A stretch of DNA of 64,000 nucleotides from positions 7,626,001 to 7,690,000 of the forward strand of contig NC_091990.1 in assembly GCF_044704955.1 (NCBI RefSeq). Reading direction: 5' to 3'. Under the pieces are notes generated by a model. It worked only from the letters and a program-made list of their open reading frames with translations. It made no database searches and had not been told where the DNA came from. Shown one piece after another: positions 10,912 through 48,992 of this stretch. The position numbers and the translations under genes are program-made. Every line of letters starts with the position of its first letter. The stretch's first letter is position 1. This stretch comes from Pristiophorus japonicus. Its lineage: Eukaryota.

Positions 10912-11198
10912 ACTCTTTTGGGGGGGGGCTACAAAATAAACATTAGATCGAGTCCCCCCCCCCCCCCCCGATCTGGGGGACATTCCAGACACTTATAACT
11001 GCCCTCTTTTTTTTCCTTTTGTGATTTTTTGGGGGGCATTAAAATCATATAATTTACAAGTGCCCCTATAAAAGGGGAGGGGGACACTAAAATCCCCGGC
11101 AATTAAAACAAATTAAACTTTAAAACATAAAATCAAATTAAAATTTGGTTGCCGGGGGTGATGATGCACTCCAGTCCCTCCGGCGCCCACCTCTCGCG
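10912..11198 (-). mobile_element. 5'-truncated Tx1-clade copy with about 14-bp TSD
   Basis: Tx1 ORF2 end and 3' UTR. CGCTGCTCAATACA at 10898-10911 and 11197-11210. Confidence 0.9.
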
Positions 11199-11547
11199 CT
11201 GCTCAATACAACCTGCTGCACCCGAATGCATCCTGCACCTCAATGCCCTCTGCTCTGCTCAGCTCTCCTTGCAAGCAAAGACAACATGCTGCCTGACCCG
11301 CTGAGCATTTCCAGCAGTTTCTGTTTTTATTTCAGAATTCTTAAAATGCATTCAGGATAGCTTTTTTTTTACTTAGTCTGTAGCAAGCCCAACAAGAGCA
11401 GGTAGCAGGGTGGGGGTGGTTCTGGACTGAGTTTTAGGGAATGAAGTTGGGCAGGTAGAAGGGGTATCAGTGGGAGAGCATTTTGGAGGTAGTGATCATA
11501 ATTCAGTTGGAATCCAGAGGCCTGGACTAACGATCCGAAGACGTGAA

Positions 11548-12022
11548 ACTCTTTTAGAGTCTACCTGCAAAACATAAACATTAAACTGTGCCACCCGACC
11601 TGGGTGACACACCAGACATTTACAAGGCCCTTTTTTTCCTTTTTTTGGTTTTTTTTTTGTGTTTTTCTTTTTTTTTTTGGGCACTAAAATCACAATTTTT
11701 CCCCAGTGCCCCCTATAAAAGGGAAGGGGACACTAAAAGCACCGGCAATTAAAACAAATTAAACTTTAAAACGTAAAATCAAATTAAAATTTGGTTGCCG
11801 GGCGTGATGATGCACTCCAGTCCCTCCGGTGCCCACCTCTCGCGGAAGGCCGCGAGCGTACCGGTGGACACCGCGTGCTCCATCTCCAAGGACACCCTGG
11901 ACCGGATGTAAGAGCGGAAGAGAGGCAGGCAGTCAGGTTGAACGACCCCCTCGACCGCCCGCTGCCTGGACCGGCTGATGGCACCCTTGGCCGTGCCCAG
12001 GAGCAGTCCTACGAGGAGACCT
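11548..12022 (-). mobile_element. 5'-truncated Tx1-clade copy inserted in a SINE-like repeat
   Basis: Near-identical to the 3' end of the full-length copy. Perfect TSD TCCGAAGACGTGAA at 11534-11547 and 12023-12036. Confidence 0.93.
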
Positions 12023-12499
12023 TCCGAAGACGTGAATTCAAATCCCACCATGGCAGCTGGGGAATTTAAATTCAGTTAGTTAAATAAATCTGGAATAAAA
12101 AGCTAGTATCCGTAATGGTGACCGGTTTGTCGTTAAAAACCCATCTGGTGCATTAATGTCCTTTTGGGAAGGAATCCTGCCGTCCTTACCCGGTCTGGCC
12201 TATACATGACACAGCAATTTATTTATCTTAACTGCTCACCACCACCTTTTCAAGGGCAATTGGGGCTGGGCAATAAATGTTTTGAAAAGTAATGGAAAAG
12301 GATAAAAATAGATCAGGAGTTAAAGTTTTCGATTGGTGAAAGACCAATTTTACTAAACTGAGATCTGATTTAGCAAAAGTGGAGGGGAAACAGCGACTTG
12401 AAGATAAAAAAAAGAAAAGAAAGACAATCATTTATATAGCGCCTTTCACGACCACCGGACATCCCAAAGCACTTTACAACCATTGAAGATTAGTCTTAT

Positions 12500-28450: not shown

Positions 28451-31400
28451 GAGCAGTGGTGCAGCAGGGAGGGATTCAAATTCCTGGGGCATTGGAACCG
28501 GTTCTGGGGGAGGTGGGACCAGTACAAACCGGACGGTCTGCACTTGGGCAGGACCGGAACCAATGTCCTAAGGGGAGTGTTTGCTAGTGCTGTTGGGGAG
28601 GAGTTAAACTAATATGGCAGGGGAATGGGAACCAATTCAGGGAGACAGAGGGAAACAAAATGGAGACAGAAGCAAAAGACAGAAAGGAGATGAGTAAAAG
28701 TGGAGGGCAGAGAAACCCAAGGCAAAAAACAAAAAGGGCCAATGTACAGCAAAATTCTAAAGGGTCAAAGTGTAATAAAAAAAGCAAGCCTGAAAGCTCG
28801 ATGGGAGGAGTATTCGGAACCCAGGAGAGGGCTCTGAGCTAGTTAGAGTGGGTGAGAGCTCAGATGAACAGGACCCCAAGAAAGAATGCAAAAGGCAGGA
28901 GGCAACAGAGCAGAGTAACACTGGGGTAAGTGTAAACCACAAGGTGATAGGAAGGGACAATATGTATGAATATAAAGGGGCTGCAGGAGGGGTCAAAACT
29001 AAAAAATCATGGTTTAAAAACTAGTATTAAAACACTCTACCTAAACGCACATCAGCATTCGAAATAAAGTAAATGAGTTGAGGGCACAAATCATTACAAA
29101 TGGGTATGATTTGGTGGCCATTACAGAAACGTGGTTGCAAGGTGGCCAAGACTGGGAATTAAACATACAGGGGTATCTGACAATTCGGAAGGATAGACAA
29201 GAAGGGAAAGGAGGTGGGGTAGCTCTGTTAATAAAGGATGATATCAGGGCAGTTGTGAGAGATGATATTGGCTCTAATGAACAAAATGTTGAATCATTGT
29301 GGGTGGAGATTAGAGATAGTAAGGGGAAAAAGTCACTGGTGGGCGTAGTTTATAGGCCCCCAAATAATAACTTCACGGTGGGGCGGGCAATAATCAAGGG
29401 AATAATAGAGGCATGTGAAAAAGGAACGGCAGTAATCATGGGGGATTTTAACCTACATATCGATTGGTCAAATCAAATCGCACGGGGTAGCCTGGAGGAG
29501 GAATTCATAGAATGCATACAGGATTGTTTCTTAGAACAGTATGTTACAGAACCTACAAGGGAGCAAGCTATCTTAGATCTGGTCCTGTGTAATGAGAGAG
29601 GAATAATAAACGATCTCCTAGTAAAAGATCCTCTTGGAATGAGTGATCACAGTATGGTTGAATTTGTAATACAGATTGAGGGTGAGGAAGTAGTGTCTCA
29701 AACGAGCGTACTATGCTTAAACAAAGAGGACGACAGTGGGATGAGGGCAGAGTTAGCTAAAGTAGACTGGGAACACAGACTAAACGGTGGCACAATTGAG
29801 GAACAGTGGAGGACTTTTAAGGAGCTCTTTCATAGTGCTCAACAAAAATATATTCCAGTGAAAAAGAAGGGTGGTATGAGAAGGGATAACCAGCCGTGCA
29901 TAACCAAGGAAATAAAGGAGAGTATCAAATTAAAAACCAATGCGTATAAGGTGGCCAAGGTTAGTGGGAAACTAGAAGATTGGGAAAATTTTAAACGACA
30001 GCAAAGAATGACTAAGAAAGCAATAAAGAAAGGAAAGATAGATTACGAAAGTAAAATTGCGCAAAACATAAAAACAGATAATAATAGCTTTTACCGATAT
30101 ATAAAACGGAAGAGAAAGACTAAAGTAAATGTTGGTCCCTTAGAAGATGAGAAGGGGGATTTAATAATGGGAAATGTGGAAATGGCTGAGACCTTAAACA
30201 ATTATTTTGCTTCGGTCTTCACAGTGGAAGTCACAAAAACCATGCCAAAAATTGCTGGTCACGGGAATGTGGGAAGGGAGGACCTTGAGACTATCACTAT
30301 CACTAGGGAGGTAGTGCTGGACAGGCTAATGGGACTCAAGGTAGACAAGTCCCCTGGTCCTGATGAAATGCATCCCAGGGTATTAAAAGAGATGGCGGAA
30401 GTTAAAGCAGATGCATTCGTTATAATCTACCAAAATTCTCTGGATTCTGGGGAGGTACCAGCGGATTGGAAAGCAGCTAATGTAACGCCCCTGTTTAAAA
30501 AAGAGGGCAGACAAAAGGCAGGTAACTATATGCCGGTTAGTTTAACATTTGTAGTGGGGGAAATGCTTGAAGCTATCATTAAGGAAGAAATATCGGGACA
30601 TCTAGATAGGAATAGTGCAATCAAGCAGACGCAACATGGATTCATGAAGGGGAAATCATGTTTAACTAACTTACTGGAATTCTTTGAGGATATAACGAGC
30701 ATGGTGGATAGAGGTGTACCGATGGATGTGGTGTATTTAGATTTCCAAAAGGCCATTCGATAAGGTGCCACACAAAAGGTTACTGCAGAAGATAAAGATA
30801 CGCGGAGTCAGAGGAAATGTATTAGCATGGATCAAGAATTGGCTGGCTAACAGAAAGCAGAGTCGGGATAAAGAGGTCCTTTTCGGGTTGGAAATCGGTG
30901 GTTAGTGGTGTGCCACAGGGATTGGTGCTGGGACCACAACTGTTTACAATATACATAGATGACCTGGAAGAGGGGACAGAGTGTAGTGTAACAAAATTTG
31001 CAGATGACACAAAGATTAGTGGGAAAGCGGGTTGTGTAGAGGACACAGAGAGGCTGCAAAGAGATTTGGATAGGTTAAGCGAATGGGCTAAGGTTTGGCA
31101 GATGGAATACAATGTCGGAAAATGTGAGGTCATCCACCTTGGGGAAAAAAAACAGTAAAAGGGAATATGATTTGAATGCGTAGAAATTACAATGTGCTGC
31201 GTTGCAGAGGGACCTGGGGGTCCTTGTGCATGAAACTCTTTTGGGAGCGAACAAAAACGTTAAACCGTGCCCCCCCCCCGATCTGGGGGAAACACCAACC
31301 ATTTACAAGGCTTTTTTTTGGGGGCACAGAATCATATTTTCCTCCAAGTGCCCCCTATAAAAGGGGAGGGGGACACTAAAAGCACCGGCAATTAAAACAA

Positions 31401-34400
31401 ATTAACTTAAAAACATAAAATCAAATTAAAATTTGGTTGCCGGGCGTGATGATGCACTCCAGTCCCTCCGGTGCCCACCTCTCGCGGAAGGCCGCGAGCG
31501 TACCGGTGGACACCGCGTGCTCCATCTCCAGGGACACCCTGGCTCGGATGTAGGCGCGGAAGAGAGGCAGGCAGTCGGGCTGAACGACCCCCTCGACCGC
31601 CCGCTGCCTGGACCGGCTGATGGCCTCCTTGGCCGTGCCCAGGAGCAGTCCTACGAGGAGGCCCTCGGACCTACCCGCTCCCCTCCGCACAGGGTGCCCA
31701 AAGATCAGGAGTGTGGGACTGAAGTGCAGCCAGAATTTCAGGAGCAGCCCCTTCAAATAACAAAACAGGGGCTGCAACCTCGTGCACTCAATAAAAACAT
31801 GGAACACGGACTCCTCCAGACCGCAGAAATTGCAGGCGGCCTGGGAGCCCGTGAACCGACTTAAAAATTTATTGCACGGCGCTGCTCCGTGCACCACCCT
31901 TCAGGCCAAGTCCCCGACAAATAGTGGGAGGACCCCTGCGTAGAGTGCCCTCCATCGGGGACCCCCGCCTCCTCCGGACGGCAAGATGGTACGCCATGGC
32001 GTGTCTGGACGGCAGGCGAGGATGGCAAAGTTGAGAGTGTGCAGGAGCAGCCCGTACAGGAAACCCCTCCGCACGGAACTGAAAGGCACGGAGGGGATTT
32101 CCCCGAGGTGGCTCAAGTTGTGAGGCGCCGGCCCCCGAGGGAGGTTCCGGGGTTTGGCGTCGATGAAGAATTCCGTCCGGACGGGGGTCAGTTCAGACGG
32201 GATCTCCCCATGTGCTTGAGCCTCCTCAATGCACCTAACGGAGTCAGGGCCCAGAGCTCTTTTTAGCAACTTGATGGCATCGGCCGCGCGACGGACGTTG
32301 GCAGAATTTAGGCGCCGCGCCAGCATGTCTGGCGCCATCCAGCCCGCTCCTCCGCCATCGAGCAGATCCCTGACCCTGGTCACCTCACCAGCCACAGCCC
32401 TCTCTTCCGACCGCCACAAAAAACCTTGGTCGTGGAGGTACGGATTCCCGAGCAGCGGCTCCTGCAGGACAGCCGCCACTCCAGCCGGTGGAGAGCTGCG
32501 CTTGGTGGAGACTTTGTTCCAGACCCTGATGAGTTCCTGGTAAAAGACAGGCAGCTCCCGGAGGGAACAGGAGCTGCGTGTCGTAGTTGAGGCTGTGCTG
32601 CTGGCGGAAGAAATACATCACCAGAGCACACCACCTGGGAGGGGGCTCGACGTAAAGGTATCTCTGCAGGGTCTGAAGACGGAAAGTCGCGAGCTGGGCG
32701 CTGACGCACACCAACGACTGACTGCCCTCCTCAAGCGGGAGACTCAAGACCGCGGCAGAGACCCAGTGCTTCCTGTTGTTCCAGAAGAAGTCCACCAGCT
32801 TCTTCTGTATCTTGGCGACAAACGCAGGGGGAGGGGTCAAAGTGACCAGCCGGTACCACAACATGGCGGCCACCAGCTGGTTTATGACTAGCGCTCGACC
32901 CCTGTAGGACAGCACTCGGAGCAGTCCTGTCCAGCGCCCTAGGCGAGCGGCGACCTTGGCCTCCAGCTCCTGCCAGTTCGCCGGCCAGGCTTCCTCGTCG
33001 GGGCTAAGGTAGACTCCCAGATAGAGGAGATGGGTCGTGCTCCAGGAAAAAGGCCTGAGCCCCTCCGGCAGGGAGTCTACCCGCCACTGACCCACCAGGA
33101 GTCCGGAACATTTCTCCCAGTTGATCCTGGCGGAGGACGCGGCCGAGTAAATCTCCTGACACTCACGCATCCTCCGCAGGTCAGCGGGATCCTCTACCGC
33201 GAGGAGCACGTCATCGGCGTAAGCCGAGAGGATGACCTCCACGCCCGGCCCTTGCAGAGCCAGTCCCGTCAACCTCGTCCGCAAGAGGCGCAGGAAAGGC
33301 TCCACGCAAACAGCATATAACTGGCCGGACATGGGGCATCCCTGGCGCACCCCTCTCCCAAAGCAAAGGGGCGCCGTCAAGGACCCGTTAACCTTAATCA
33401 GACACTCCGCGGCGGCGTATAAAAGTCGGATCCTGGCGACGAAATGCGTCCCGAACCCGAAAGCGCGCAGAGTTCCGAGCAGATAGTCGTGATCCACCCT
33501 GTCGAACGCCTTCTCTTGGTCGAGGGATAGGAAGGCGACCGACAGACCAGCCTCCTGGGAGTAATGGATGAGGTCCTGGACCAGATGGATGTTATCGTGG
33601 ATTGTCTGGCCCGGGACCGTGTAGGACTGGTCGGGGTGGATCATGTGGTCCAGCACGGCACCAAGGCAAGCAGACATCGCCCTGGTGAAGATTTTGTAGT
33701 CCGTGCTAAGGAGGGAGACCGGGCGCCAGTACTTAAGGAGGTGGAGATCGCCCTTCTTAGGCAGCAGGACGATGACTGCCCTGCGCCAAGAGAGGGGCAT
33801 CTCCCCGGTCGCCAGACTTTCCCCCAGGACCCGCGCGTAGTCGCCCCCCCAGGACGTCCCAGAACGCCCTGTGGAACTCCACGGTCAGCCCGTCCAGCCC
33901 CGGGGATTTTCCCCTCGAGAGCCAGTTGAGGGCGCCGATCAGCTCCGCCAGGCTTAGCGGAGCTTCCAGATTTTCGGCGCCCTCCGGGCTGACCTTCGGC
34001 AGGTCCTCCCACAAAACTCTACGCGCTTCCTCACTGGACGGCTCCGGAGAGAACAGGGCCCAATAATATTCACGGGCCCTGTTGTTGACACCCTCCGGAT
34101 CCGAGACGAGAGAGCCGTCGTCGGCCAGCAGCGTCAAGAGCTGCTTACGGACACCCTGTCTTTTTTCCAGCAAGTAGAAGAAGTGGGAGCCGCGGTCCAG
34201 ATCCCGCAGGAACCGGATCCGCGACCTCACGAACGCGCCTCGGGACCCGACGAGCTGCAGGTCCTTCAGCGCGGCCTTCTTCGCTTCGTACACCGTCCGC
34301 AGGGCCAGGTCCCCGACGACTTGACTGAGACGGGATGCCAGGTCGAGCACCTCTTTATCTAGGAGCCCGACTCTGGCCGCCCGCCTCTTGGTCGACCCCC

Positions 34401-35183
34401 TCGCGTACTCTTGACAGAAGACGCGGATGTGAGCCTTGCCCACGTCCCACCATAGCCTCAAGGAGGGGAAGCTCCTTGTGCATGAATCCCCCAAAAAAAG
34501 GTTAGTTTGCAGGTGCAGCAGGTAATCAGGAAGGCAAATGGAATGTTGGCCTTCATTGCGAGAGGGATGGAGTACAAAAGCAGGGAGGTGTTGCTGCAAC
34601 TGTACAGGGTATTGGTGAGGCCGCACCTGGAGTACTGCGTGCAGTTTTGGTCACCTTACTTAAGGAAGGATATACTAGTCTTGGAGGGGGTACAGAGACG
34701 ATTCACTGGGCTGATTCCGGAGATGAGGGGGTTACCTTATGATGATAGATTGAGTAGACTGGGTCTTGTTGGAGTTCAGAAGGATGAGGGGTGATCTTAG
34801 AGAAACATTTAAAATAATGAAAGGGATAGACAAGATAGAGGCAGAGAGGTTGTTTCCACTTGTCGGGGAGACTAGAACTAGGGGGCACAGCCTCAAAATA
34901 CAGGGGAGCCAATTTAAAACCGAGTTGAGAAGGAATTTCTTCTCCCAGAGGGTTGTGAATCTGTGGAATTCTCTGCCAAGGAAGCAGTTGAGGCTAGCTC
35001 ATTGAATGTATTCAAGTCACAGATAGATAGATTTTTAACCAATAAGGGAATTAAGGGTTACGGGGAGCGGGCGGGTAAGTGGAGCTGAGTCCACGGCCAG
35101 ATCAGCCATGATCTTGTTGAATGGCGGAGCAGGCTCGAGGGGCTAGATGGCCTACTCCTGTTCCTAATTCTTATGTTTTTATG
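28451..35183 (+). mobile_element. Young near-full-length CR1 LINE (end of SGNH-esterase ORF1, APE-RT ORF2), interrupted by Tx1
   Basis: ORF1 end WCSREGFKFLGHWNRFWGRWDQYKPDGLHL. ORF 29078-30763 has ITETWL, GDFN and SDH endonuclease motifs. FADD near 31000, several frameshifts, TTCTTATG-type tail at 35168-35183. Confidence 0.92.
31235..34472 (-). mobile_element. 5'-truncated Tx1-clade LINE (RT with YADD, C-terminal zinc motif), frameshifted
   Basis: LDQEKAFDRVDH, RQGCPMS, SAYADDV, CNFCGLEESVFHVFIEC. TSD TCCTTGTGCATGAA at 31221-31234 and 34473-34486. Confidence 0.95.
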
Positions 35184-35294
35184 AAAGGGACAGTGGCAGC
35201 ATGGATATGAAATTGGCTCAGTGACAGGAAACAGAGAGTAGTGATGAATGGTTGTTTTTCAGACTGGGGTCGGTACTAGGACCACTGCATTTCT

Positions 35295-35927
35295 TAGAAA
35301 CATAGAAACATAGAAAATAGGAGCAGTAGTAGGCCATTCAGCCCTTCGAGCCTGCACCACCATTCAATATGATCATGGCTGATCCTCTATCTCAACACCA
35401 TATTCCCGCTTTTTGCCCATACCCCTTGATGCCTTTTGTTTCTAGAAATCTATCTATCTCCCTCTTAAATACATTCAGTGACTTGGCCTCCACAGCCTTC
35501 TGTGGTAGAGAATTCCACAGGTTCACCACCCTCTGAGTGAAAAGATTTCTCCTCATCTCGGTCCTAAATTTCCTACCCCGTATCCTGAGACAGTTATCAT
35601 GTATGTCGACCATATATACTGACTGTATAGTCACATAAAGTGTGCCACCAGAGAGCACTGCGGTGGGAGACCTGAGGGTCACCTGATAGGTGTGCAGGGC
35701 CCAGTATAAAAGGCTGCCCACCATCTTGTGTGTCACTCTGGAGTTACAATGAATGGGCCTAAGGTCACAACAGCTCAAGTACAATACTAGACCTCGTGGA
35801 GTCATTCATAAATATTAAAGACATAACAACTGTGACCCCTTGTTCTAGACTTCCCAGCCAGGGGAAACATCCTCCCCACATCCAGTCTATCCAATCCTGT
35901 CAGAATTTTATACATTTCAATGAGATC
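35295..35927 (-). mobile_element. CR1 3' end (older subfamily), resumes at about 37302-37930
   Basis: (AGAAACAT)n tail on +. RT motifs FADN and KAFDKVPH lie in the 37.3-37.9 kb part. Confidence 0.8.
35592..35828 (+). mobile_element. Probable solo LTR (about 237 bp) inserted in CR1
   Basis: Interrupts CR1 GAGAC/TGTGACC. Ends (A)GTTAT...ATAACA are short inverted termini, TATAAAA at about 35705. Confidence 0.6.
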
Positions 35928-37304
35928 TGCTATAACTTCCGCCATCTCTTTTAATACCCTGGGATGCATTTCATCAGGACCAGGGGACTTGTCTACCTTG
36001 AGGCCCATTAGCCTGTCTAGCACTACCCCCCTAGTGATAGTAATTGTCTCAAGGTCCTCTCTTCCCACATTCCTGTGACCAGCAATTTTTGTCATGGTTT
36101 TTGTGTCTTCCACTGTGAAGACCGAAGCAAAATAATTGTTTAAGGTCGCAGCCATTTCCACATTTCCCATTATTAAATCCCCCTTCTCATCTTCTAAGGG
36201 ACCAACATTTACTTTAGTCACTCTTTTCCGTTTTATATATCTGTAAAAGTTTTTACTATCCGTTTTTATGTTTTTCGCAAGTTTACCTTCATAATCTATC
36301 TTTCCTTTCTTTATTGCTTTCTTAGTCATTCTTTGCTGTCGTTTAAAATTTTCCCAATCTTCTATTTTCCCACTAACCTTGGCCACCTTATACGCATTGG
36401 TTTTTAATTTGATACTCTCCTTTATTTCCTTGGTTATTCACAGCTGATTATCCCTTCTCTTACCGCCCTTCTTTTTCACTGGAATATATTTTTGTTGAGC
36501 ACTATGAAAGAGCTCCTTAAAAGTCCTCCACTGTTCCTCAATTGTGCCACCATTTAGTCTGTTTCCAGTCTACTTTAGCCAACTCTGCCCTCATCCCACT
36601 GTAGTCCCCTTTGTTTAAGCATAGTACGCTCGTTTGAGACACTACTTCCTCATCCTCAATCTGTATTACAAATTCAATCATACTGTGATCACCCATTCCA
36701 AAAGGATCTTTTACTAGGAGATCGTTTATTATTCCTCTCTCATTACACAGGACCAGATCTAAGATAGCTTGCTCCCTTGTAGGTTCTGTAACATACTGTT
36801 TTAAGAAACAATCCCGTATGCATTCTTTGAATTCCTCCTCCAGGCTACCCCGTGCGATTTGATTTGACCAATCGATATGTAGGTTAAAATCCTCCATGAT
36901 TACTGCTGTTCCTTTTTCACATGCCTCCATTATTCCCTTGATTATTGCCCTCCCCACCATGAAGTTATTATTTCCACTGGTCGGGGAGACTAGAACTAGT
37001 GGGCACAGCCTCAAAATACGGGGGAGCCAATTTAAAACCGAGTTGAGAAGGAATTTCTTCTCACAGAGGGTTGTGAATCTGTGGAATTCTCTGCCCAAGG
37101 AAGCAGTTGAAGCTAGCTCATTGAACGTATTCAAGTCACAGATAGATAGATTTTTAACCAATAAGGGAATTAAGGGTTACGGGGAGCGGGCGGGTAAGTG
37201 GAGCTGAGTCCACGGCCAGATCAGCCATGATCTTGTTGAATGGCGGAGCAGGCTCGAGGGGCTAGATGGCCTACTCCTGTTCCTAATTCTTTATGTTCTT
37301 ATGT
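35925..37304. mobile_element. Young CR1 copy with inverted 5' part (35925-36973 minus, 36971-37304 plus)
   Basis: Minus part corresponds to 29362-30412 and plus part to 34854-35183. Confidence 0.88.
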
Positions 37305-37931
37305 ACTCAAATCCTCTTGCAATGAAGGCCAACATACCATTTTCCTTCCTAACTGCTTGCTGCACCTACATGTTTGCTTTCAATGACTGGTGTAGAAGGA
37401 CATCCAGGTCCCTCTGTACATCGACTCTTCCCAAGCCATCACCATTTAAATAATACTTTGTCCTTATGTTTTTCCTACCAAAGTGGATAACTTCACATTT
37501 ATCCACGTTATACTGCATCTGCCATGTGTTTGCCCACTCACTCAACCGATCTAAATCACCTTGCAGCGACTTTGCATCCTCCTCACAACTCACAATCCCA
37601 CCTAGTTTTGTGTTGTCAGCAAACTTGGAAATATTACATTTGGTTCCCTCATCCAAATCATTTATATATATATTGTGAATAGCTGGGGCCCAAGCACTGA
37701 TCCTGTGGTACCCCACTAGTCACTGCCCGACACGCCGAAAAAGACACCGTTTATTCCTACACTCTGTTTCTTGTCAGTTAACCAATTTTCAATCCATGCC
37801 AATACATTAACCCCAATCCTATGTGCTTTTATTTTGCACACTGACCTCTTATGTGGGACTTTATCAAAGGCCTTCTGATAATCCAAATACACTACATCCA
37901 CTGGTTCTCCCTTATCTATTCTATCAGTTAC

Positions 37932-39060
37932 ATCTTCTTGATATATATTAATGACTTAGACTTGGATGTACAGGACATAAGACTTGAATCTATAGTGAAC
38001 AGTGAGGAGGATAGTGTTAGACTTCAAGAGGACATGGACAAGCTGCTGGAATGGTCAGACACGTGGCAGATTAAATTTAACGCAGAAAAGTGCAGAGTGA
38101 TACATTTTGGTAGGAAGAACGAGGAGAGCCAATATAACTTAAAGTGTACAATTCTAAAGGGGGTGCATGAACAGAGAGATCTGGGGGTATGTGTGCAAAA
38201 ATCATTGAAGGTGGCAGGGCAGGTTGAGAAAGCAGTTAAAAAAGCATACGGGATCCTGGGCTACATAAATAGAGGCACAGAGTACAAAAGCAAGGAAGTT
38301 ATGATGAACCTGTATAAAACACTGGTTTGGCCTCAACTGGAGTATTGTGTCCAATTCTGGGCACCACACTTTAGGAAGGATGTGAAGGCCTTAGAGAGGG
38401 TGCAGAAAAGATTTACGAGAATGGTTCCAGGGATGAGGGACTTCAGTTACGTGGATAGACTGGAGAAGCTGGGGTTGTTCTCCTTGGAGCAGAGAAGGTT
38501 GAGAGGAGATTTGATCGAGGTGTTCAAAATCACGAGGGGTCTGGACAGGGTAGATCGAGAGAAACTGTTCCCATTGGTGGAAGGGTCGAGAACCAGAGGA
38601 CACAGATTTAAGATGATCGGCAAAAGAACCAAAGGCGACATGAGGAAAAACCTTTTATGCAACAAGTTGTTTGGATCTGGAATGCATCATCATAGGCAGT
38701 CCCTTGTATCGGGGATGATTTGCTTTCATGCCAAAAAGGGATGAGTTCACAGGTGTTTCAATGAAGGACCTAATATTCCGGATCCCGAACTGCATCCTGA
38801 AGGGTGGAAGATGCCTGTGCATGGATTTTTTTAACATGTGGTGACTGTTGCACACCAGCCACCAGTACTGCCTGAAAGGATGGTGGAGGCAGATTCAATT
38901 GTGGCTTTCAAAAGGGAATTGGATAAGTACCTGAAGGGAAAAAAATTGCAGAGCTATGGAGAAAGGGCGGGGGAGTGGGACTGGCTGAAGTGCACTTGCA
39001 GAGAGCCGGCACGGGCTCGATGGGCCGAGTGGCTTCCTGTGCTGTAACCGTTCTGTGATT
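37932..39060 (+). mobile_element. CR1 3' fragment interrupted by an RTE-related short element (about 38685-38864, minus)
   Basis: Encodes EQRDLGV...LEYCVQFWAPH...RGDLIEVFK. Confidence 0.85.
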
Positions 39061-39469
39061 TTTTTTAAAAGGACACAGTACCCGAGGACGAGGAATCAGA
39101 CCAGGAGAAAACTATAAGCCTTAACAATAAAATCCAAATGCCAAGTTTAAGTACCGTATGATCAATGTACCAACTAGATGAACTATTTGTGCTTGTCAAT
39201 CGATTCATGAAGAAGTCAATCTTATTGCAATCTAAACAATAAAAAAGTTCTGAAGGAGTCACCAGAGGCTCAAACACCACACACCTGAAGCATGGGGTGG
39301 GCAGACTAAACGTGGAGTAAGAGAGCCATGTGCCTTCAAATGATAGTCCAGGAGGAGGACATTTGTGACGTATCTCTGGATAACCTCAGAAATTGAGTAT
39401 GTGAAAGCAAATGGCATTGGTTTAATCATTTGGCCCATCGTGCCTGAACCGGCTCTTTGATAGAGATAT

Positions 39470-39815
39470 CCAATCAGTGCCACTCTTCCCTGCTCCAATC
39501 AGTGCCACTCCCCCCTGCTCCAATCAATCCCACTCTCCCCTGCTCCAATCAGTGCCACTCTCCCCTGCTCCAGTCAATCCCACTCTCCCCTGCTCCAATC
39601 AGCGCCACTCTCCCCTGCTCCAATCAGCACCAATCTCCCCTGCTCCAATCAGTCCCAACTCTCCCCTGCTCCAATCAGCGCCACTCTCCCCTGCTCCAAT
39701 CAGCGCCATTCTCCCCTGCTCCAATCAGTGCCACTCCCCCCTACTCCAATCAGTGGCACTCCCCCCTACTCCAATCAGTTGCACTCTCCCCTGCTCCAAT
39801 CAGTCTCACTCCCCC
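39470..39815. repeat. 25-nt minisatellite CCAATCAGTGCCACTCTCCCCTGCT, about 14 copies
   Basis: CCAATC recurs at 39470, 39495, 39520, 39545 and onward. Flanks resemble a reversed CR1 3' end. Confidence 0.95.
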
Positions 39816-39845
39816 ACACTTTCCCCACAGTCCTGCAAGCATTTC

Positions 39846-41640
39846 CCTATCTGGGAGTCTACCTTAGCCCCGACGAGGAAGCCTGGCTGGCGAACTGGCA
39901 AGAGCTGGAGGCCAAGGTCGCCGCTCGCCTAGGGCGCTGGACAGGACTGCTCCGAGTGCTGTCCTTCAGGGTTCGAGCGCTAGTCGTAAACCAGCTGGTG
40001 GCCGCCATGTTGTGGTACCGGCAGGTCACTTTGACCCCTCCCCCTGCGTTTGTCGCCAGGATACAGAAGAAGCTGGTGGACTTCTTCTGGAACAACAGGA
40101 AGCACTGGGTCTCTGCCGCGGTCTTGAGTCTCCCGCTTAGGGAGGGCGGTCAGTCGTTGGTGTGCGTCAGTACCCAGCTAGCGACTTTCCATCTTCAGAC
40201 TCTGCAGAGATACCTTTACGTCGAGCCCCCTCCTAGGTGGCGTGCTCTGGAGACGTATTTCTTCCGCCAGCAGCACGGCCTCAACTACGACACACAGCTC
40301 CTGTTTGTGAGCTTGGGGGGGCTTCAGGACCGCCGTCCAGGAGCTGCCTGTCTTTTACAAAGAACTCACCAGGGTCTGGAACAAAGTCTCCACCAAGCGC
40401 AGCTCTCCACCGGCTGGAGTGGCGGCTGTCCTGCAGGAGCCGCTGCTCGGGAATCCGTACCTCCACGACCGAGATTTTAGGTGGCAGTCGGACGAGAGGG
40501 CTGTGGCTGGTGAGGTGACCAGGGTCAGGGACCTGCCCGATGGCGGAGGAGCGGGCTGGATGGCGCTAAAAACAGCTCTGGGCCCTGACTCCGTTAGGTG
40601 CATCGAGGAGGCTCAAGCACGTGGGGAGATCCCGTCCGAACTGACCCCCGTCCGGACGGAATTCCTCATTGGCGCCAAACACCGGAACCTCCCTCGGGGG
40701 CCGGCGCCTCACAACTTGAGCCGCCTCGGGGAAATCCCCTCCGTGCCCTTCAGTTCCGCGCGGAGGGGTTTCCTGTACGGGCTGCTCCTGCACACTCTCA
40801 ACTTTGCCATCCTCGCCTGCCGTCCGGACACGCCATGGCGTACCATCCTACCGTCCGGAGGAGGCGGGGGTCCCCGATGGAGGGCACTCTACGCAGGGGT
40901 CCTCCCACTATTCATCGGGGACTTGGCCTGGAGGGTGGTGCACGGAGCAGTGCCGTGCAATAAATTTTTAAGCCGGTTCACGGACTCCCAGGCCGCCTGC
41001 AATTTCTGCGGTCTGGAGGAGTCCGTGTTCCATGTTTTTATTGAATGCACGAGGTTGCAGCCCCTGTTCCATTATATAAAGGGGCTGCTCCTGAAATTCT
41101 GGCTGCACTTCAGTCCCACTCTCCTGATCTTTGGGCACCCTGTGCGGAGGGGAGCGGGTAGGTCCGAAGGCCTCCTCGTAGGACTGCTCCTGGGCACGGC
41201 CAAGGGTGCCATCAGCCGGTCCAGGCAGCGGGCGGTCGAGGGGGTCGTTCAACCTGACTGCCTGCCTCTCTTCCGCTCTTACATCCGGTCCAGGGTGTCC
41301 TTGGAGATGGAGCACGCGGTGTCCACCGGTACGCTCGCGGCCTTCCGTGAGAGGTGGGCACCGGAGGGACTGGAGTGCATCATCACGCCCGGCAACCAAA
41401 TTTTAATTTGATTTTACGTTTTTAAGTTTAATTTGTTTTAATTGCTGGTGCTTTTAGTGTCCCCCTCCCCTTTTATAGGGGGCACTGGGGAAAAATTGTG
41501 ATTTTAGTGCCCAAAAAAAAAACCAAAAAAAGAAAAACACAAAAAAAAAACCAAGGGGCCTTGTAAATGTCTGGTGTGTCACCCAGGTCGGGTAGCACAG
41601 TTTAATGTTTTTTGTTTTGCAGATAAACTCCAAAAAGAGT
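39846..41640 (+). mobile_element. Tx1-clade copy A (5'-truncated, post-RT ORF2 and 3' UTR)
   Basis: YLGVYLSPDEE...ECIITPGNQILI*, ends ...AAAAGAGT followed by TTCATGC. Confidence 0.95.
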
Positions 41641-41645
41641 TTCAT

Positions 41646-41956
41646 GCTCGCGGCCTTCCGCGAGAGGTGGGCACCGGAGGGACTGGAGTGCATCATCACG
41701 CCCGGCAACCAAATTTTAATTTGATTTTACGTTTTAAAGTTTAATTTGTTTTAATTGCCGGTGCTTTTAGTGTCCCCCTCCCCTTTTATAGGGGGCACTG
41801 GAAAATTTTTTGATTTTAGCGCCCCAAAAAAAAAAGAAAAACACAAAAAAAAAAAGGAGGAAAAAAAAAAGGGCCTTGTAAATGTCTGGTGTGTCACCCA
41901 GGTCGGGTGTCACGGTTTAATGTTTTTTTGTTTTGCAGATAAACTCCAAAAAGAGT
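41646..41956 (+). mobile_element. Tx1-clade copy B (about 310-bp 3' end)
   Basis: Repeats the ORF2 end and 3' UTR, followed by TTCATGCACAAGGA (41957-41970). Confidence 0.93.
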
Positions 41957-42882
41957 TTCATGCACAAGGAACCAATCGTGGAGCAGTGGAGGCGTGTCCT
42001 GCACAGTTGGAGCTGAGCTGCAGTGAGGAGAGGAGCTACCAACTTTTGCTCCTGCCTTTGAAGGCCTGGAGAGCCCTGAGAACAGCCCAGGAAGAGAAGG
42101 AAGGAAGGGGCTTCACCACCAACTTTCACCCAGGGGGAGAGGAGGAAAAAGCAGAAAACTTTTAACAACTTTTTACCATTTCTGCAAAGAGTTGAAGAGA
42201 GGGGGAAAGACCAACAACAACATCCAGTGTGGAAGGAGGGAGACTCTACCATTCTACAGGTGGGTGTGGGTGCATTTCCCAAAAAGACTTTGTTGTATCG
42301 GTGGGGGGAGGAAAGAAGACCACTGAGGGCCGGAACATCGCGGGGGGTGTGTGTGTGTGGAAAGTGTGTGTGGGAGTCTTGCCTACAACTAGGCCCCACA
42401 CACAATTGAACCCCCCCCCCCCCCAATTGCCTAGCCTGGGATAGCTGGAGCTACCAGGCTGAAGATTTCATTTCTTTAATCACCCATTTAACATCGTTAG
42501 GAGTGTGTGCCTGGTGGCCCAGGTGAAGACATCTTCTCCCCCCACCCGAAGACCACCCCAAAGACTATTTTGTGTTTTGCCATCTGGGGATTGCACCCAC
42601 CCACAGCTGCGAGGGGAGACCTGCCCTCGCAGTTCCCCCCCCCCTTCCCACCCCCCTCTCTCTTTCTCTGTTTCTCCCCTCTCTCTCTGAGAGCCCTTCC
42701 TTCCAGATTGGAAAAAACAATTGAGACAACTGAGCAGAGGGAGCAAGGCCCCTCCCCAATTGCCAACTAGGGGAGAGGTGTGCCTCGTTAAGAGCTCCTC
42801 CGCTCAGTCTATATACGAGGCCAATTAAGACCATTAAGGGCTGTGACTTTGGGGTGGGTGTAGCCCTTAAAGGGACCCCGTG

Positions 42883-44985
42883 ATGGCGACCCCATCCACG
42901 CCGGTGGCAGGGCCAGCGAGGACTTATGCGCAGGTGGCAACCGCTTCCACGGCACCTCCTGCGCCACCCGCTGCCCTGCCACCATTCAAACTAATAACAA
43001 AAAAACACGGGGTCAAGAGCGACACTCACCCCACAATGAGCATTGAGGAGTGCGTGCGGGCGATGGCTGGGGTAGTCGGCCCCTCGGCCATTGTTGCAGC
43101 CTCCAAGATGTCTGGGGAGGCTGTGTTCTTCCTGGGGTCGGAGCGGGCGGTGTCCCTGGCCCTCGAAAAGGGGCTCACGGTGGGCGGGACGTTCCTGCCG
43201 GAGGATCCTCTCGAGGCCACCGCGCAGAGGGTCATCATATCAAACGTCCCGCCCTTTGTTCCCGCTGAGCTCCTCCTCCCTCACCTACACCAACTGGGGG
43301 AGGTAAGGTCAGGGATCAACCCCATACCGCTCGGCCTCAGGGAGAACAGCCTGCGCCACGTGTTCTCCTTCCGCCGCCAGCTCTTTGTCCGGCTGGCGCG
43401 GGAGGAGACGACAGAGGGGTATTTTAATGTGGTGCACGAGGGGACTGCCTACCGCGTCTTCTGGACGTCGGACGGCGTGCGGTGCCATGCCTGCAGAGAG
43501 GTGGGGCACGTTCGCAAGAACTGCCCCGCCTCCAAGGCCGCCAAACCACCGAAGGCGGCCAAGGCTGGCGCCGCCGCCACCCCTCCTCCTAGTTGCGTCC
43601 GCGTGCCGGGAGCCGTAGGTGCGCGGGCATCGTCGGGGGCCTTTGTTTTCACGGCCTCCGGCGGGGGGGAGGGAGAGCGTCCGATCGAAAAGAAGGCGCG
43701 GAAGAAGACGAGACATCTAGAGGCGGGTCCCCTCAGTGCGCCAGAAAGTTTGACCACCGCGCTCAGCCCAACCCCGTCACCGACGAGCGCGGGGTGCCCT
43801 GAGCCCGTGCCCGAGCCCTTGACCAATACCGCAGAGGGGCTCGGGCGAGGGCAAGATAAGGAAAAGAGGGGGGCGGAGCGGGAGGCCTCGGCAGACATGG
43901 AGGTCTCCCTGCCTCCGCGCACCCCCAGGAACAAAAGGAGGCGCCGCTCCGATGAGGCGGAGGGGGAACAACATCCCTCCGCGGAGGAGGCGGTGCCCGC
44001 CGCGTGTCCCGCGTCCCCCACCAGCGCCCCCAAATTGCGCTGTAGGCGGGAGGAGTCTGTCCCCGGGGAGGGTGAGGCAGTCGAGGCTGCCCAGCCGCTG
44101 CCTCCTGGGGATGGAGTGGAGGATCTGCCCGTCGTGGGGGGCGTGGGGACCGCGGAAGAATGCGTAGCCGCCGGGTCGAGCGTCCCGGGGACTGAGGCGG
44201 GCGAGGCCGAAAAGGCCGAACCTGAGCCCGCCCAGCCAATACCCAACTTCCCCCGGGATTTGCTCGACTCGGCAGAAACTGACACTGCAAACAATTTTAA
44301 CATACATCCACACGCTGGGCCGGGGGGTGGCGGCGGGGAGGGGGAAGAACAACAACCCTCGCCCCCTACTTTGGAGCTGAGGGACTTGGTGGACCTGGAG
44401 AACTTCCTAAACTGGGTCTCTCCGTGTTCCCCGGCTCCTGGGGCGGAGGAGGAACCCCTTCCGCTGTCGCTTCCCGACCCAGCACCAATTTTAAAAGAGC
44501 CCAGTGGGGACTCCTCTGCCGACGATCCTGGGGGTGGGATCGGGGCAGAGCCAGGGCCAGATGGAGCGGCCGGGCCGTTTGCCGTACCTCGTGCGGTCGA
44601 CGGGCCGGCTGCTAGCGGCGACCTCCCGGAGGGGGACGGGGACTCGGTGGGGGACGCGGGTGAAGATCTCGAGTCCATCGCCAGTGAGGCGGTGGATCTG
44701 CTCGCGGCCGCCACTGAGACCCTCCTCATTCCCGCAGAGGAACTCCGGGACTTTTTGGTCCAGTGCCGGGGTCGCCGCGACCAAGCCCGTCTGGCCCTGG
44801 AAAGATGGTCCGAGCCGGGGCTGCTCGTCGCGTCCGTCCGCGCCGCCGCTAAAACCATGGCCGCGGGCGGGCCCTTATCAAAGGCTCAAGGCCTTGAGCT
44901 GCGCCGGCTCAAAAAGTTCCTCGCTGGGCTGCTGAAGGAGCGGAGGTCAACAAAAGACTCCGCTTCCTCCCCCACAATAGGTTAG
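42883..44985 (+). CDS. Tx1 ORF1, gag-like zinc-knuckle nucleic-acid-binding protein (700 aa)
   Basis: Open frame with IISNVPPFV...RHVFSFRRQ (Tx1 ORF1-like), CHACREVGHVRKNC (CX2CX4HX4C) and a long Pro/Glu-rich tail. Confidence 0.9.
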   Translation: MATPSTPVAGPARTYAQVATASTAPPAPPAALPPFKLITKKHGVKSDTHPTMSIEECVRAMAGVVGPSAIVAASKMSGEAVFFLGSERAVSLALEKGLTVGGTFLPEDPLEATAQRVIISNVPPFVPAELLLPHLHQLGEVRSGINPIPLGLRENSLRHVFSFRRQLFVRLAREETTEGYFNVVHEGTAYRVFWTSDGVRCHACREVGHVRKNCPASKAAKPPKAAKAGAAATPPPSCVRVPGAVGARASSGAFVFTASGGGEGERPIEKKARKKTRHLEAGPLSAPESLTTALSPTPSPTSAGCPEPVPEPLTNTAEGLGRGQDKEKRGAEREASADMEVSLPPRTPRNKRRRRSDEAEGEQHPSAEEAVPAACPASPTSAPKLRCRREESVPGEGEAVEAAQPLPPGDGVEDLPVVGGVGTAEECVAAGSSVPGTEAGEAEKAEPEPAQPIPNFPRDLLDSAETDTANNFNIHPHAGPGGGGGEGEEQQPSPPTLELRDLVDLENFLNWVSPCSPAPGAEEEPLPLSLPDPAPILKEPSGDSSADDPGGGIGAEPGPDGAAGPFAVPRAVDGPAASGDLPEGDGDSVGDAGEDLESIASEAVDLLAAATETLLIPAEELRDFLVQCRGRRDQARLALERWSEPGLLVASVRAAAKTMAAGGPLSKAQGLELRRLKKFLAGLLKERRSTKDSASSPTIG

Positions 44986-45010
44986 GTAGAGGTTGCACTA
45001 TGCTTTTGCC

Positions 45011-48000
45011 ATGAAGATAACCATAGCCAGCCTCAACATCAACGGCGGCAGAGGGGCACGCCGTAGATTTGACAATTTTTCGCTCCTGCGGGAGGGGAAA
45101 TATGCGGTGTGCTTCCTGCAAGAAACCCACACCGTTCCGGGAGACGAAGCCACGTGGCTCCTGGAATGGCAAGGAGAAGTCCGCATGAGCCACCTCACCG
45201 CCACTTCTAGTGGGGTGGCCATCTTGCTGGGCCCGCATTTTCAGCCGGAGATCTTGGGGGTCGAGGAGCCCATGCCAGGCCGCTTGCACGTAACGGTTCG
45301 CCTGGGGGACGTGCCGCTCCATCTCGTGAACGTGTACGCCCCTCATCCCGGCCCGCAGCAAACGCGCTTCTTCGAAGAAGTGTCCACTCTTCTTGGCTCC
45401 TTCGACGTCGGCGACTGTATTGTCCTCGGGGGGGATTTTAACTGCACCCTCGAGGCGAGGGACCGCTCCGGTGCCCCGCAGTGCATGACGGCGATGGAGA
45501 AGTTGAGGGACCTGGTCGGGTCCTTCAACTTGGTGGACGTCTGGCGAAATCTCCACCCCGACTCCAGCGCCTTTACTTGGGTGAGGCCTGGAGTTGGATG
45601 GTCTAGAGTCGACCGCCTTTACGTGTCTCGGGCGTACATTTCCTGCGTCCCGGCGGCCTCCATGCGGCCGGTGCCATGTTCGGACCACCACCTGGTGTGG
45701 GCGGAGCTCGCTTCGCTCCGCGCGAGGACGGGGTCCGCGTACTGGCACTTTAACAACCGGCTGCTGGAGGACGTGCGGTTCCAGGACTCGTTCCGTCGAT
45801 TCTGGTCCGACTGGAGAAGGAAGCAGGGGGGCTTCCCCTCCTTGAGGCTATGGTGGGACGTGGGCAAGGCTCACGTCCACGTCTTCTGTCAAGAGTACGC
45901 GAGGGGGTCGACCAAGAGGCGGGCGGCCAGAGTCGGGCGCCTAGAAAAAGAGGTGCTCGACCTGGAAGCCCGTCTCGGTCAAGTCGTCCAGGACCCGGCC
46001 CTGCGGACGGTGTACGAAGCGAAGAAGGCCGCGCTGAAGGACCTGCAGCTCGTCGGGTCCCGAGGCGCATTCATGAGGTCGCGGATCCGGTTCCTGCGGG
46101 ATCTGGACCGCGGCTCCCCCTTCTTCTACTCGCTGGAAAAAAGGCAGAGTGTCCGTAAGCAGCTCTTGACGCTGCTGGCCGACGACGGCTCTCTCGTCTC
46201 GGATCCGGAGGGTGTCAACAACAGGGTCCGTGAATATTACGGGGCTCTGTTCTCTCCGGATCCGTCCAGCGAGGAAGCGCGTAGAGTTTTGTGGGAGGAC
46301 CTGCCGAAGGTCAGCCCGGAGGGCGCCGAAAATCTGGAAGCTCCGCTAAGCCTGGCGGAGCTGACCGGTGCCCTCGCCCGGCTCTCGAGGGGAAAATCCC
46401 CGGGGCTGGACGGGCTGACCGTGGAGTTCCACAGGGCGTTCTGGGACGTCCTGGGGAGCGACTACGCGTGGGTCCTGGGGGAAAGTCTGGCGACCGGGGA
46501 GATGCCCCTCTCTTGGCGCAGGGCAGTCATCGTCCTGCTGCCTAAGAAGGGCGATCTCCGCCTCCTTAAGAACTGGTGCCCGGTCTCCCTCCTCAGCACG
46601 GACTACAAAATCTTCGCCAGGGCGATGTCTGCTCGCCTTGGTGCCGTGCTGGACCACATGATCCACCCCAACCAGTCCTACACGGTCCCGGGCCGGACAA
46701 TCCACGATAACATCCATCTGGTCCGGGACCTCATCCATTGTTCCCAGGAGGCTGGTCTGTCGGTCGCCTTCCTATCCCTCGACCAAGAGAAGGCGTTCGA
46801 CAGGGTGGATCACGATTATCTGCTCGGAACTCTGCGCGCTTTCGGGTTCGGGACGCATTTCGTCGCCCGGATCCGACTTTTGTACGCCGCCGCGGAGTGT
46901 CTGATTAAGGTTAACGGGTCCTTGACGGCGCCCTTAGGGCGTTGGACAGGACTGCTCTGAGTGCTGTCCTACAGGGGTCGAGCGCTAGTCATAAACCAGC
47001 TGGTGGCCGCAATGCTGTGGTACCGGCTGGTCACTTTGACCCCTCCCCCTGCGTTTGTCGCCAAGATACAGAAGAAGCTGGTGGACTTCTTCTGGAACAA
47101 CAGGAAGCACTGGGTCTCTGCTGCAGTCTTGAGTCTCCCGCTTGAGGAGGGCGGTCAGTCGTTGGTGTGCGTCAGCGCCCAGCTCGCGACTTTCCGTCTT
47201 CAGACCCTGCAGAGATACCTTTACGTCGAGCCCCCTCCTAGGTGGCGTGCTCTGGCGACGTATTTCTTCCGCCAGCAGCGCGACCTCAATTACGACACGC
47301 AGCTCCTGTTTGTGAACTTGGGGGGCGTCAGGACCGCCCTCCGGGAGCTGCCTGTCTTTTACAGGGAACTCATCAGGGTCTGGAACAAAGTCTCCACCAA
47401 GCGCAGCTCTCCGCCGGCTGGAGTGGCGGCCGTCCTGCAGGAGCCGCTGCTCGGGAATCCGTACCTCCACGACCGAGGTTTTATGTGGCGGTCGGAAGAG
47501 AGGGCTGTGGCTGGTGAGGTGACCAGGGTCAGGGACCTGCTCGATGGCGGAGGAGCGGGCTGGATGGCGCCAGACATGCTGGCGCGGCGCCTAAATTCTG
47601 CCAACGTCCGCCACGCGGCCGATGCCATCGAGTCGCTAAAAGCAGCTCTGGGCCCTGACTCCGTTAGGTGCATCGAGGAGGCTCAAGCACATGGGGAGAT
47701 CCCGTCCGAACTGACCCCCGTCCGGACGGAATTCCTCATTGGCGCCAAACACCGGAACCTCCCTCGGGGGCCGGCGCCTCACAACTTGAGCCGCCTCGGG
47801 GAAATCCCCTCCGTGCCCTTCAGTTCCGCGCGGAGGGGTTTCCTGTACGGGCTGCTCCTGCACACTCTCAACTTTGCCATCCTCGCCTGCCGTCCGGACA
47901 CGCCATGGCGTACCATCCTGCCGTCCGGAGGAGGCGGGGGTCCCCGATGGAGGGCACTCTACGCAGGGGTCCTCCCACTATTCATCGGGGACTTGGCCTG

Positions 48001-48481
48001 GAGGGTGGTGCACGGAGCAGTGCCGTGCAATAAATTTTTAAGCCGGTTCACGGACTCCCAGGCCGCCTGCAATTTCTGCGGTCTGGAGGAGTCCGTGTTC
48101 CATGTTTTTATTGAATGCATGAGGTTGCAGCCCCTGTTCCATTATATGAAGGGGCTGCTCCTGAAATTCTGGCTGCACTTCAGTCCCACTCTCCTGATCT
48201 TTGGGCACCCTGTGCGGAGGGGAGCGGGTAGGTCCGAAGGCCTCCTCGTAGGACTGCTCCTGGGCACGGCCAAGGGTGCCATCAGCCTGTCCAGGCAGCG
48301 GGCGGTCGAGGGGGTCGTTCAACCTGACTGCCTGCCTCTCTTCCGCTCTTACATCCGGTCCAGGGTGTCCTTGGAGATGGAGCACGCGGTGTCCACCGGT
48401 ACGCTCGCGGCCTTCCGCGAGAGGTGGGCACCGGAGGGACTGGAGTGCATCATCACGCCCGGCAACCAAATTTTAATTTGA
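45011..48481 (+). pseudogene. Tx1 ORF2 (APE endonuclease, RT, zinc motif), disabled
   Basis: SLNING, LQETH, GGDFN, SRVD and SDH endonuclease motifs. In-frame loss of the QG/YADD region relative to 32943-33368, and TGA at 46958-46960 where the other copies have CGA. Confidence 0.92.
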
Positions 48482-48718
48482 TTTTACGTTTTAAAGTTTA
48501 ATTTGATTTAATTGCCGGTGCTTTTAGTGTCCCCCTTCCCTTTTAAAGGGGGCACTGGGGAAAAATTGTGATTTTAGTGCCCAAAAAAAAAACCAAAAAA
48601 AGAAAAACACAAAAAAAAAGGAGGAAAAAAAAAGGGCCTTGTAAATGTCTGGTGTGTCACCCAGGTCGGGTGGCACGGTTTAATGTTTTTTGTTTTGCAG
48701 ATAAACTCCAAAAAGAGT

Positions 48719-48992
48719 TTCATGCAAAAGGACCCCCGGGTCCCTCTGCACCGTAGCATGTTGTAATTTCTCCTCATTCAAATAATATTCCCTTTTACTG
48801 GTTTTTTTTCCAAGGTGGATGACCTCACATTTTCCGACATTGTATTCCATCTGCCAAACCTCAGCCCATTCGCTTAACCTATCCAAATCTCTTTGCAGCC
48901 TCTCTGTGTCCTCTACACAACCCGCTTTCCCACTAATTTTTGTGTCAGTTGCAAATTTTGTTACACTACACTCTGTCCCCTCTTCCAGATCA
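48719..48992 (-). mobile_element. CR1 RT fragment forming the target flank of the Tx1 stack
   Basis: Reverse complement is near-identical to 30960-31234. Confidence 0.92.

Follow-up and report, generated by a model that had tools for sequence, protein, structure and literature searches.

Can one long interspersed nuclear element (LINE) use the coding region of another as its regular landing site? The question is raised by a 64,000-nucleotide stretch of the Pristiophorus japonicus genome (assembly GCF_044704955.1, contig NC_091990.1, positions 7,626,001–7,690,000 of the forward strand; hereafter the window), in which copies of a LINE of the Tx1 clade stand inside copies of a CR1-type LINE. An earlier note on the window had proposed that the Tx1 element repeatedly targets a single nucleotide of CR1, and the counts that we report across the genome bear this out. 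Site-specific targeting of one LINE by another, on a large scale and by a young family, is strongly supported. We put at roughly 0.85 the probability that this recently mobile Tx1-clade LINE sits antisense at one fixed base of CR1 open reading frame 2 (ORF2) and that its own endonuclease recognises and nicks the sequence there, priming reverse transcription at that point.

Two CR1-linked loci in the window

The first locus is a 5'-truncated Tx1 copy with an older, type-A tail (31235–34472, − strand), whose first base corresponds to position 3886 of a sister copy 7190 bases long and which is bracketed by a perfect 14-base target site duplication, TCCTTGTGCATGAA, present once at its 3' junction (31221–31234, + strand) and once at its 5' junction (34473–34486, + strand). 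As the earlier note had read it, the insert splits ORF2 of the host LINE, here on the + strand, between the codons for RDLGVLVHE and KVSLQVQQ, and the reading frame picks up beyond the insert. The left part of the host (28451–31234, + strand) carries ORF2, for an endonuclease and a reverse transcriptase, from 29045, with frameshifts and stops already present, as well as a possible ORF1 remnant at 28451–28609; its right part (34487–35184, + strand) holds the end of ORF2 and a 3' untranslated region (UTR) that finishes in TTCTTATG-type repeats.

The second locus is a single tandem array of three type-B Tx1 copies (39840–48718, + strand throughout): a 5'-truncated copy at 39840–41640; a 7-base target remnant, TTCATGC, at 41641–41647, whose last two bases are common to the next copy; a short 5'-truncated copy at 41646–41956; a 14-base target duplication at 41957–41970; and a 5'-intact copy at 41971–48718, with a 5' UTR, ORF1 at 42883–44985, ORF2 at 45011–48481 and a 3' UTR ending in AAAAGAGT. 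This last copy abuts a 276-base remnant of a second host CR1 copy (48719–48994, − strand), which starts from the identical target base. The Tx1 3' ends at 41640, 41956 and 48718 do all join TTCATGC, and the type-A tail of the first locus does differ from those of the array, both as previously described. Since the three ends share one array, the window contains two CR1-linked loci rather than four; the statement that all copies lie antisense to CR1 is correct for both loci. The 15-base junction occurs in the window four times exactly and once with two mismatches, against a chance expectation of 0.17.

Both the left end of the array and the third copy are damaged. The former shows neither duplicated target nor the right half of CR1, its left junction being lost; directly to its left, at the position expected for the CR1 right half, lies a tandemly repeated, CCAAT-containing unit of ~22 bases (39470–39830, + strand). 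In the 5'-intact copy, 427 bases of the reverse transcriptase are deleted near 46935. Its endonuclease, which had been described as intact from 45011, keeps its motifs but has a one-residue deletion relative to the sister copy.

One CR1 base is the predominant target genome-wide

We searched the 5.9-Gb genome; the counts given rest on exact matching, with segmental duplicates left in, and the loci sampled for inspection come almost wholly from one contig, C1, where they were chosen by exact patterns. Of 1,049 exact matches to the 24-base Tx1 3' end, 835 continue with TTCATGC; for a degenerate pattern covering most type-B tails the figure is 9,019 of 11,803. Thus 76–80% of Tx1 3' ends are on target, where Kojima's rule for target preference asks for duplications and for more than 20% of flanks within a single repeat. 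An element inserting at random would land on such a site about once in 100,000, even given 100,000 sites. Exact junctions of tail plus 14 bases number at least 14,553.

We inspected all of the first 100 exact 3' ends on contig C1. Forty-nine lead into CR1 at the target base and 32 into another Tx1 copy by way of the target spacer; of the remainder, 1 reaches the target followed by CR1 sequence of another part, 2 reach a secondary site, and the last 16 have either a mutated target or a flank elsewhere. Counted as 89 loci, 75 are on target by script, 2 more by their CR1 5' flank, and 12 lie elsewhere. The junctions are therefore not random, and a target in an RNA gene (U2, U5, 5S or tRNA, as for Keno) can be rejected as well, since 81 of the 100 flanks are CR1 or target spacer and the other flanks were read by eye.

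The exact empty CR1 site is present 26,397 times (12 of 12 sampled were CR1) and the exact filled junction 6,088 times, and therefore about 19% of exactly matching CR1 sites are filled. The filled count might have come from a CR1 variant that has ...GAAACTC at this position and no insert; this was discarded, because 6,088 of 6,731 matches go on into the Tx1 tail and 30 of 30 sampled end there. A further 590 sites continue with C or G; among 30 sampled, CR1 variants make up the majority and Tx1 ends about six. Much of this class consists of a CR1 variant with C for A just before the target base (L175, L176, L180, L182 and others).

Outside CR1, a secondary target in an old non-coding repeat that shares A|TTCA has been used 62 times, with duplications of 12–15 bases at most sampled loci. 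Copies of this repeat (L160–L171, for example C1:87069490) are 72–94% alike over their aligned parts, gave no protein match, and returned only sub-threshold hairpin hits from Rfam. The window itself has one off-target, 5'-truncated Tx1 copy (11548–12022, − strand) with its own 14-base duplication outside CR1 (11534–11547 and 12023–12036). It appears to lie within what may be the tRNA-like head of a short interspersed nuclear element (SINE; 12037–12130, + strand); nearby, a related Tx1 variant is represented by a short 3' fragment (11003–11197, − strand), its 3' UTR being different and shorter.

Identity and age of the two elements

The inserting element has two ORFs, the second encoding an apurinic endonuclease-like (APE) endonuclease and a reverse transcriptase. 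The endonuclease at the start of ORF2 matches Pfam Exo_endo_phos (E=8e-11) and L1 endonuclease structures (E=1e-19); a CCHC knuckle in ORF1 (zf-CCHC, E=0.0017) and a C-terminal zinc motif in ORF2 (zf-RVT, E=4e-5) both miss the Pfam cut-off. Xenopus Tx1L ORF2 is the best named match to the ORF2 piece from the window (51% over 99% of the query), and an unbroken copy is 49.6% identical to Xenopus laevis Tx1L ORF2 over 1,299 residues. In a FastTree tree built on 25 of 32 rows, with Keno, Kibi and Tx1-Mar absent as rows, ORF2, Tx1L and two further sequences form a single starred branch. At about 50% identity and on a shared branch, these protein comparisons place the element in the Tx1 clade, as the earlier note had assigned it.

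Among full-length copies, ORF2 is open in 18 of 39 and both ORFs in 11. Divergence among type-B copies is 1.7%, and their mean nearest-neighbour distance is 0.7% (n=81), as compared to 4.2% for type-A copies (n=7); 3,954 5'-intact copies stand behind the target in the genome. By these measures of sequence the family appears young and recently mobile.

ORF2 of the host LINE likewise carries an APE endonuclease and a reverse transcriptase by Pfam. Its nearest named relatives are from sharks and rays, followed by turtles, birds, frogs and lizards at about 40%; with proteins of duck, goose, stork, crane, turtle and lizard it shares 39–43% identity and one starred branch (FastTree). None of the matched proteins carries a CR1 label; that bird LINEs of this kind belong to CR1 is well established. 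Its ORF1 candidate is only a 53-residue remnant without a Pfam match, with a DGLH motif such as an esterase-type ORF1 might carry. The 3' end consists of short tandem repeats, (TTCTTATG)n, not poly(A). On its ORF2 relatives and this ending we provisionally file the host LINE as CR1, the tree having had no CR1-labelled, L2 or Rex1 row. Within the CR1 group, a poly(A) tail is reported to be a feature unique to Zenon, and in sharks and rays the group is the most abundant repeat class, at 22–34% of the genome (PMC13343379).

Host CR1 copies differ mutually by about 4%, and hosts include distant variants that are only 76–86% identical (L001, L102). No open frame of 450 codons up to the target site was found in any of 73 filled hosts, and 12 empty hosts are as decayed as the 73 filled ones. 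In most cases the CR1 copy was probably dead before Tx1 inserted, which would fit the safe-target strategy set out in part of the literature (PMC4640811). The earlier suggestion that the Tx1 element disables CR1 is, as a role, not supported: ORF2 is indeed broken by the insert, yet the hosts differ by ~4% against 1.7% for type-B Tx1, and filled and empty copies are equally decayed.

The insertions arose independently

Of 40 5' junctions lying on the right half of CR1, 8 belong to full-length copies and 32 to truncated ones, whose 5' ends fall at 29 distinct positions. Target bases extend for 12–16 at 17 of these junctions and for 4–10 at 11, with 12 unscored. Among 48 host flanks compared, no two are identical. 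A host variant base is repeated in all seven spacers of array L083, the off-target arrays L073 and L115 repeat their own local spacer, and 10 of 12 off-target loci have duplications of 13–18 bases, most of which start at A|TTC or something close to it. On target and off, the duplicated bases, in most cases about 14, derive from local DNA. The independence of the insertions, which the earlier note had argued from the differing tails, is thus upheld by truncation points and locally derived duplications that do not descend from one duplicated junction.

Some products at the CR1 site are very small or chimeric. Inserts of only 10–12 bases are found at four loci (L136, L147, L155, L156). A complete 5S rRNA that has a SINE-like head in front of it (L154:1375–1494) and a complete tRNA with its 3' trailer (L146:1401–1472) are each fused to the last 10–12 bases of the Tx1 tail, and a tRNA-like 3' half sits at a truncated 5' end in L142. 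Short inserts and chimeras of this sort are typical of reverse transcription at a nick, and the 5S rRNA and tRNA chimeras look like template switches of a kind able to seed new SINEs. Truncation near base 6899 of the 7190-base element, ~290 bases from its 3' end, recurs at eight loci (L044, L052, L054, L073, L079, L083, L092, L169), possibly marking a pause site or the source of a short RNA.

Neighbouring copies in arrays often share 5' ends

Adjacent truncated copies have the same 5' end in 39 of 65 pairs, as compared to 47 of 5,021 pairs (0.9%) between loci, and in 32 of the 39 the tails differ. Across the last 100 bases of 32 same-end pairs we counted 263 differences, where 267 are expected for unrelated copies. 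The simplest reading of shared 5' ends together with unrelated 3' ends suggests that the 5' junctions of newcomers are templated by the resident copy. In the nine-copy array on contig C1, copies with different tails have junction variants in common, as well as 5' tracts that vary in length. In favour of addition upstream, the older type-A copies are last in 6 of 6 mixed arrays, upstream copies have 70 private changes against 110, and at L146 the upstream insert opens with the resident tRNA's first 8 bases.

The nine-copy array (C1:9710119–9769900, L202–L208) runs head to tail for about 60 kb inside one CR1 copy, with six ORF2 open. The off-target arrays L073 and L115 comprise 13 and 12 or more short copies, with the local duplication between each, so that even poor sites have been reused repeatedly.

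A model for insertion and array growth

The observations on which a mechanism can be built are the fixed 3' junction, the ~14-base local duplication, the variable 5' truncation, the tandem arrays, and the loose A|TTC core off target. By analogy with Tx1L and R1, the first nick would fall in the CR1 sense strand after ...GTGCATGAA, and the freed 3' end would prime the Tx1 complementary DNA (cDNA); a second nick, about 14 bases away on the other strand, would produce the duplication. Older CR1 copies, numbering in the tens of thousands and mostly dead, would offer a harmless landing ground. The hairpin loop of the Tx1 endonuclease that contacts DNA is three residues shorter than that of Tx1L and is without the RDGH tip of the latter; this would fit a changed target, and proves nothing.

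Because the upstream flank and the duplicated target persist at the 5' junction, the site can be reused, with new copies likely added upstream. We regard it as probable that new copies are inserted upstream of the resident in this way, and favour, with somewhat less confidence, the view that the newcomer's cDNA often anneals to its resident homologue and adopts that copy's 5' junction. The most inclusive statement we put forward tentatively, at slightly under even odds: a vertebrate LINE lineage not described before has become a specialist on coding sequence of a different LINE clade, has occupied about a fifth of the sites there, and copies its resident neighbour for the 5' end.

Several points weigh against this account, in its targeting or its array part. 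About a quarter of type-B 3' ends are without the exact seven target bases, comprising both point-mutated targets and true off-target sites; targeting specificity is strong but not absolute. Among 30 filled-site loci sampled towards the beginning of C1, seven belong to two sets of segmental duplicates (L131/132/134/137 and L130/133/135), and with the duplicates within arrays this means that junction counts exceed event counts. The choice of sampled loci by exact patterns favours young copies. The first 100 bases of 32 same-end pairs have 29 differences where 41 are expected, a modest excess of likeness, and the sign test for a younger upstream copy (24 against 13 pairs, p=0.10) is weak alone. 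Finally, the arrays include members that are simple duplicates, or perhaps errors of assembly, such as copies 0 and 1 of L055 and three of the nine at C1 9.71–9.77 Mb.

Weighing other explanations

For the arrays, neighbours of the same length could instead postdate integration, a tandem duplication having come first and then gene conversion or unequal exchange involving copies elsewhere. Identical neighbours and long shared 5' tracts (L055; copies 0/1, 5/6/7 and 7/8 of the nine-copy array) are what this process would leave, and unequal exchange within an array yields 5'/3' mosaics; tandem duplication and gene conversion do account for some array cases. As the general origin of shared 5' ends we consider it unlikely, given that tails differ in 32 of the 39 same-end pairs, among them two-copy arrays without an internal donor (L023, L041, L086), that the neighbours' 3' ends are as unlike as those of unrelated copies, and that neighbours share locus-private changes almost only near the 5' end. 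An origin in which one or a few CR1–Tx1 composites were amplified by the CR1 machinery or by segmental duplication, with no targeting at all, has in its favour the two small sets of segmental duplicates just mentioned; it is refuted for the sample by the 29 5' ends among 32 truncated copies, the many tail variants, the differing host flanks and host subfamilies, and the separate duplication at each locus, equal in length off target. Hitchhiking of a single composite is ruled out on the same grounds, and we give the idea practically no weight.

How the site is recognised could also be explained otherwise. R1 and R2 use target-derived RNA, and here read-through transcripts might anneal to the target at a weakly specific nick, so that RNA–DNA pairing did most of the targeting. 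Target-derived RNA has been discussed for 5' junctions (PMC2718515); the element's final T overlaps the leading TT of the target, type-A copies are often one T short, and tandem arrays could supply read-through RNA. Yet off-target copies also end at AAAAGAGT and pass directly into their own local duplication rather than into CR1 bases, and spacers carry host-specific variant bases (L083). The off-target ends and the L083 variants imply that no more than one to three bases of the target can be part of the Tx1 RNA; a target sequence brought in by the RNA is thus largely ruled out, and pairing as the main guide is highly improbable. A cue other than sequence, such as a host protein or CR1 integration intermediates, might likewise draw Tx1 to CR1, the A|TTC core common to off-target sites being too short alone to give 76–80% specificity. 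Insertion at one base in one orientation, the 62 uses of an unrelated repeat that shares A|TTCA, and host CR1 copies that predate most insertions make this very improbable. We therefore prefer recognition and nicking of the CR1 sequence by the Tx1 endonuclease itself.

Discussion

A CR1 target would extend the Tx1 strategy to LINEs, beyond the RNA genes, microsatellites, DNA transposons and LTR (long terminal repeat) elements already listed. With a young family that has open copies, the basis of APE endonuclease specificity becomes testable against a close relative, Tx1L. The shared 5' ends of arrays bear on the completion of the 5' junction of non-LTR elements, a poorly understood step; if these ends are indeed copied from residents, thousands of arrays would record the making of such junctions, and intact copies with a defined target would make the step testable. 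For the annotator, repeat catalogues of genomes of this kind will miscount or fuse the nested elements.

Sequencing runs from other organisms offered little on the spread of the family. Contigs from six runs of five other organisms did not bridge the Tx1–CR1 junction, one ending 10 bases past it, with the repetitive tail skipped in this comparison. Runs X8, X9, X12 and X14, from three other organisms, compared with window positions 48200–49000 and L006, contained pieces ~99% identical to Tx1, two of them also to CR1, at low depth; these are more likely carry-over of DNA than a resident repeat.

How does this system compare with those already known? Our literature search, which did not extend to Repbase, Dfam, subscription papers or the per-family supplements of Kojima 2015, found no Tx1 family that targets CR1. 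Zepp of the alga Chlorella, an L1-group LINE, is said to insert into LINE sequence, that of its own family; the target here is instead an unrelated clade at tens of thousands of dispersed sites. A close parallel is Tx1L of Xenopus laevis, which inserts at one sequence inside the DNA transposon Tx1D and whose endonuclease, according to the portions of these reports that concern it, nicks that site almost exclusively (PMC1950540, PMC4494074). Our element resembles Tx1L in its insertion at a single sequence inside another transposon and differs in having CR1 LINE coding sequence as its target. The target list in Kojima 2015 covers piggyBac-type, Mariner, Harbinger and LTR elements, U2, U5 and 5S genes, satellites and microsatellites, and in that part of the paper no LINE is named (PMC4494074). 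The crocodilian families Tx1-Mar, Tx1-8_Crp, Tx1-4_AMi and Tx1-9_AMi, as described there, share with ours transposon targets, fixed positions, tandems around the duplication and small-RNA chimeras; unlike these old families (85–87% to consensus), the one described here is young and has many open copies (PMC4494074).

Drosophila R1 offers a second parallel, being an APE-type site-specific LINE with a 14-base duplication whose arrays grow by insertion into the duplication at the resident's 5' end (PMC2718515). It belongs to the R1 clade and targets 28S rRNA, however, and the portion of that account that deals with arrays does not describe neighbours with a common 5' truncation (PMC2718515); R1 dimers with distinct truncations appear in part of another report (bioRxiv 10.1101/158386). 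The published kind, then, is that of site-specific Tx1 elements in DNA transposons and LTR elements, and a CR1 LINE as the target appears, from the literature covered here, to be the new part.

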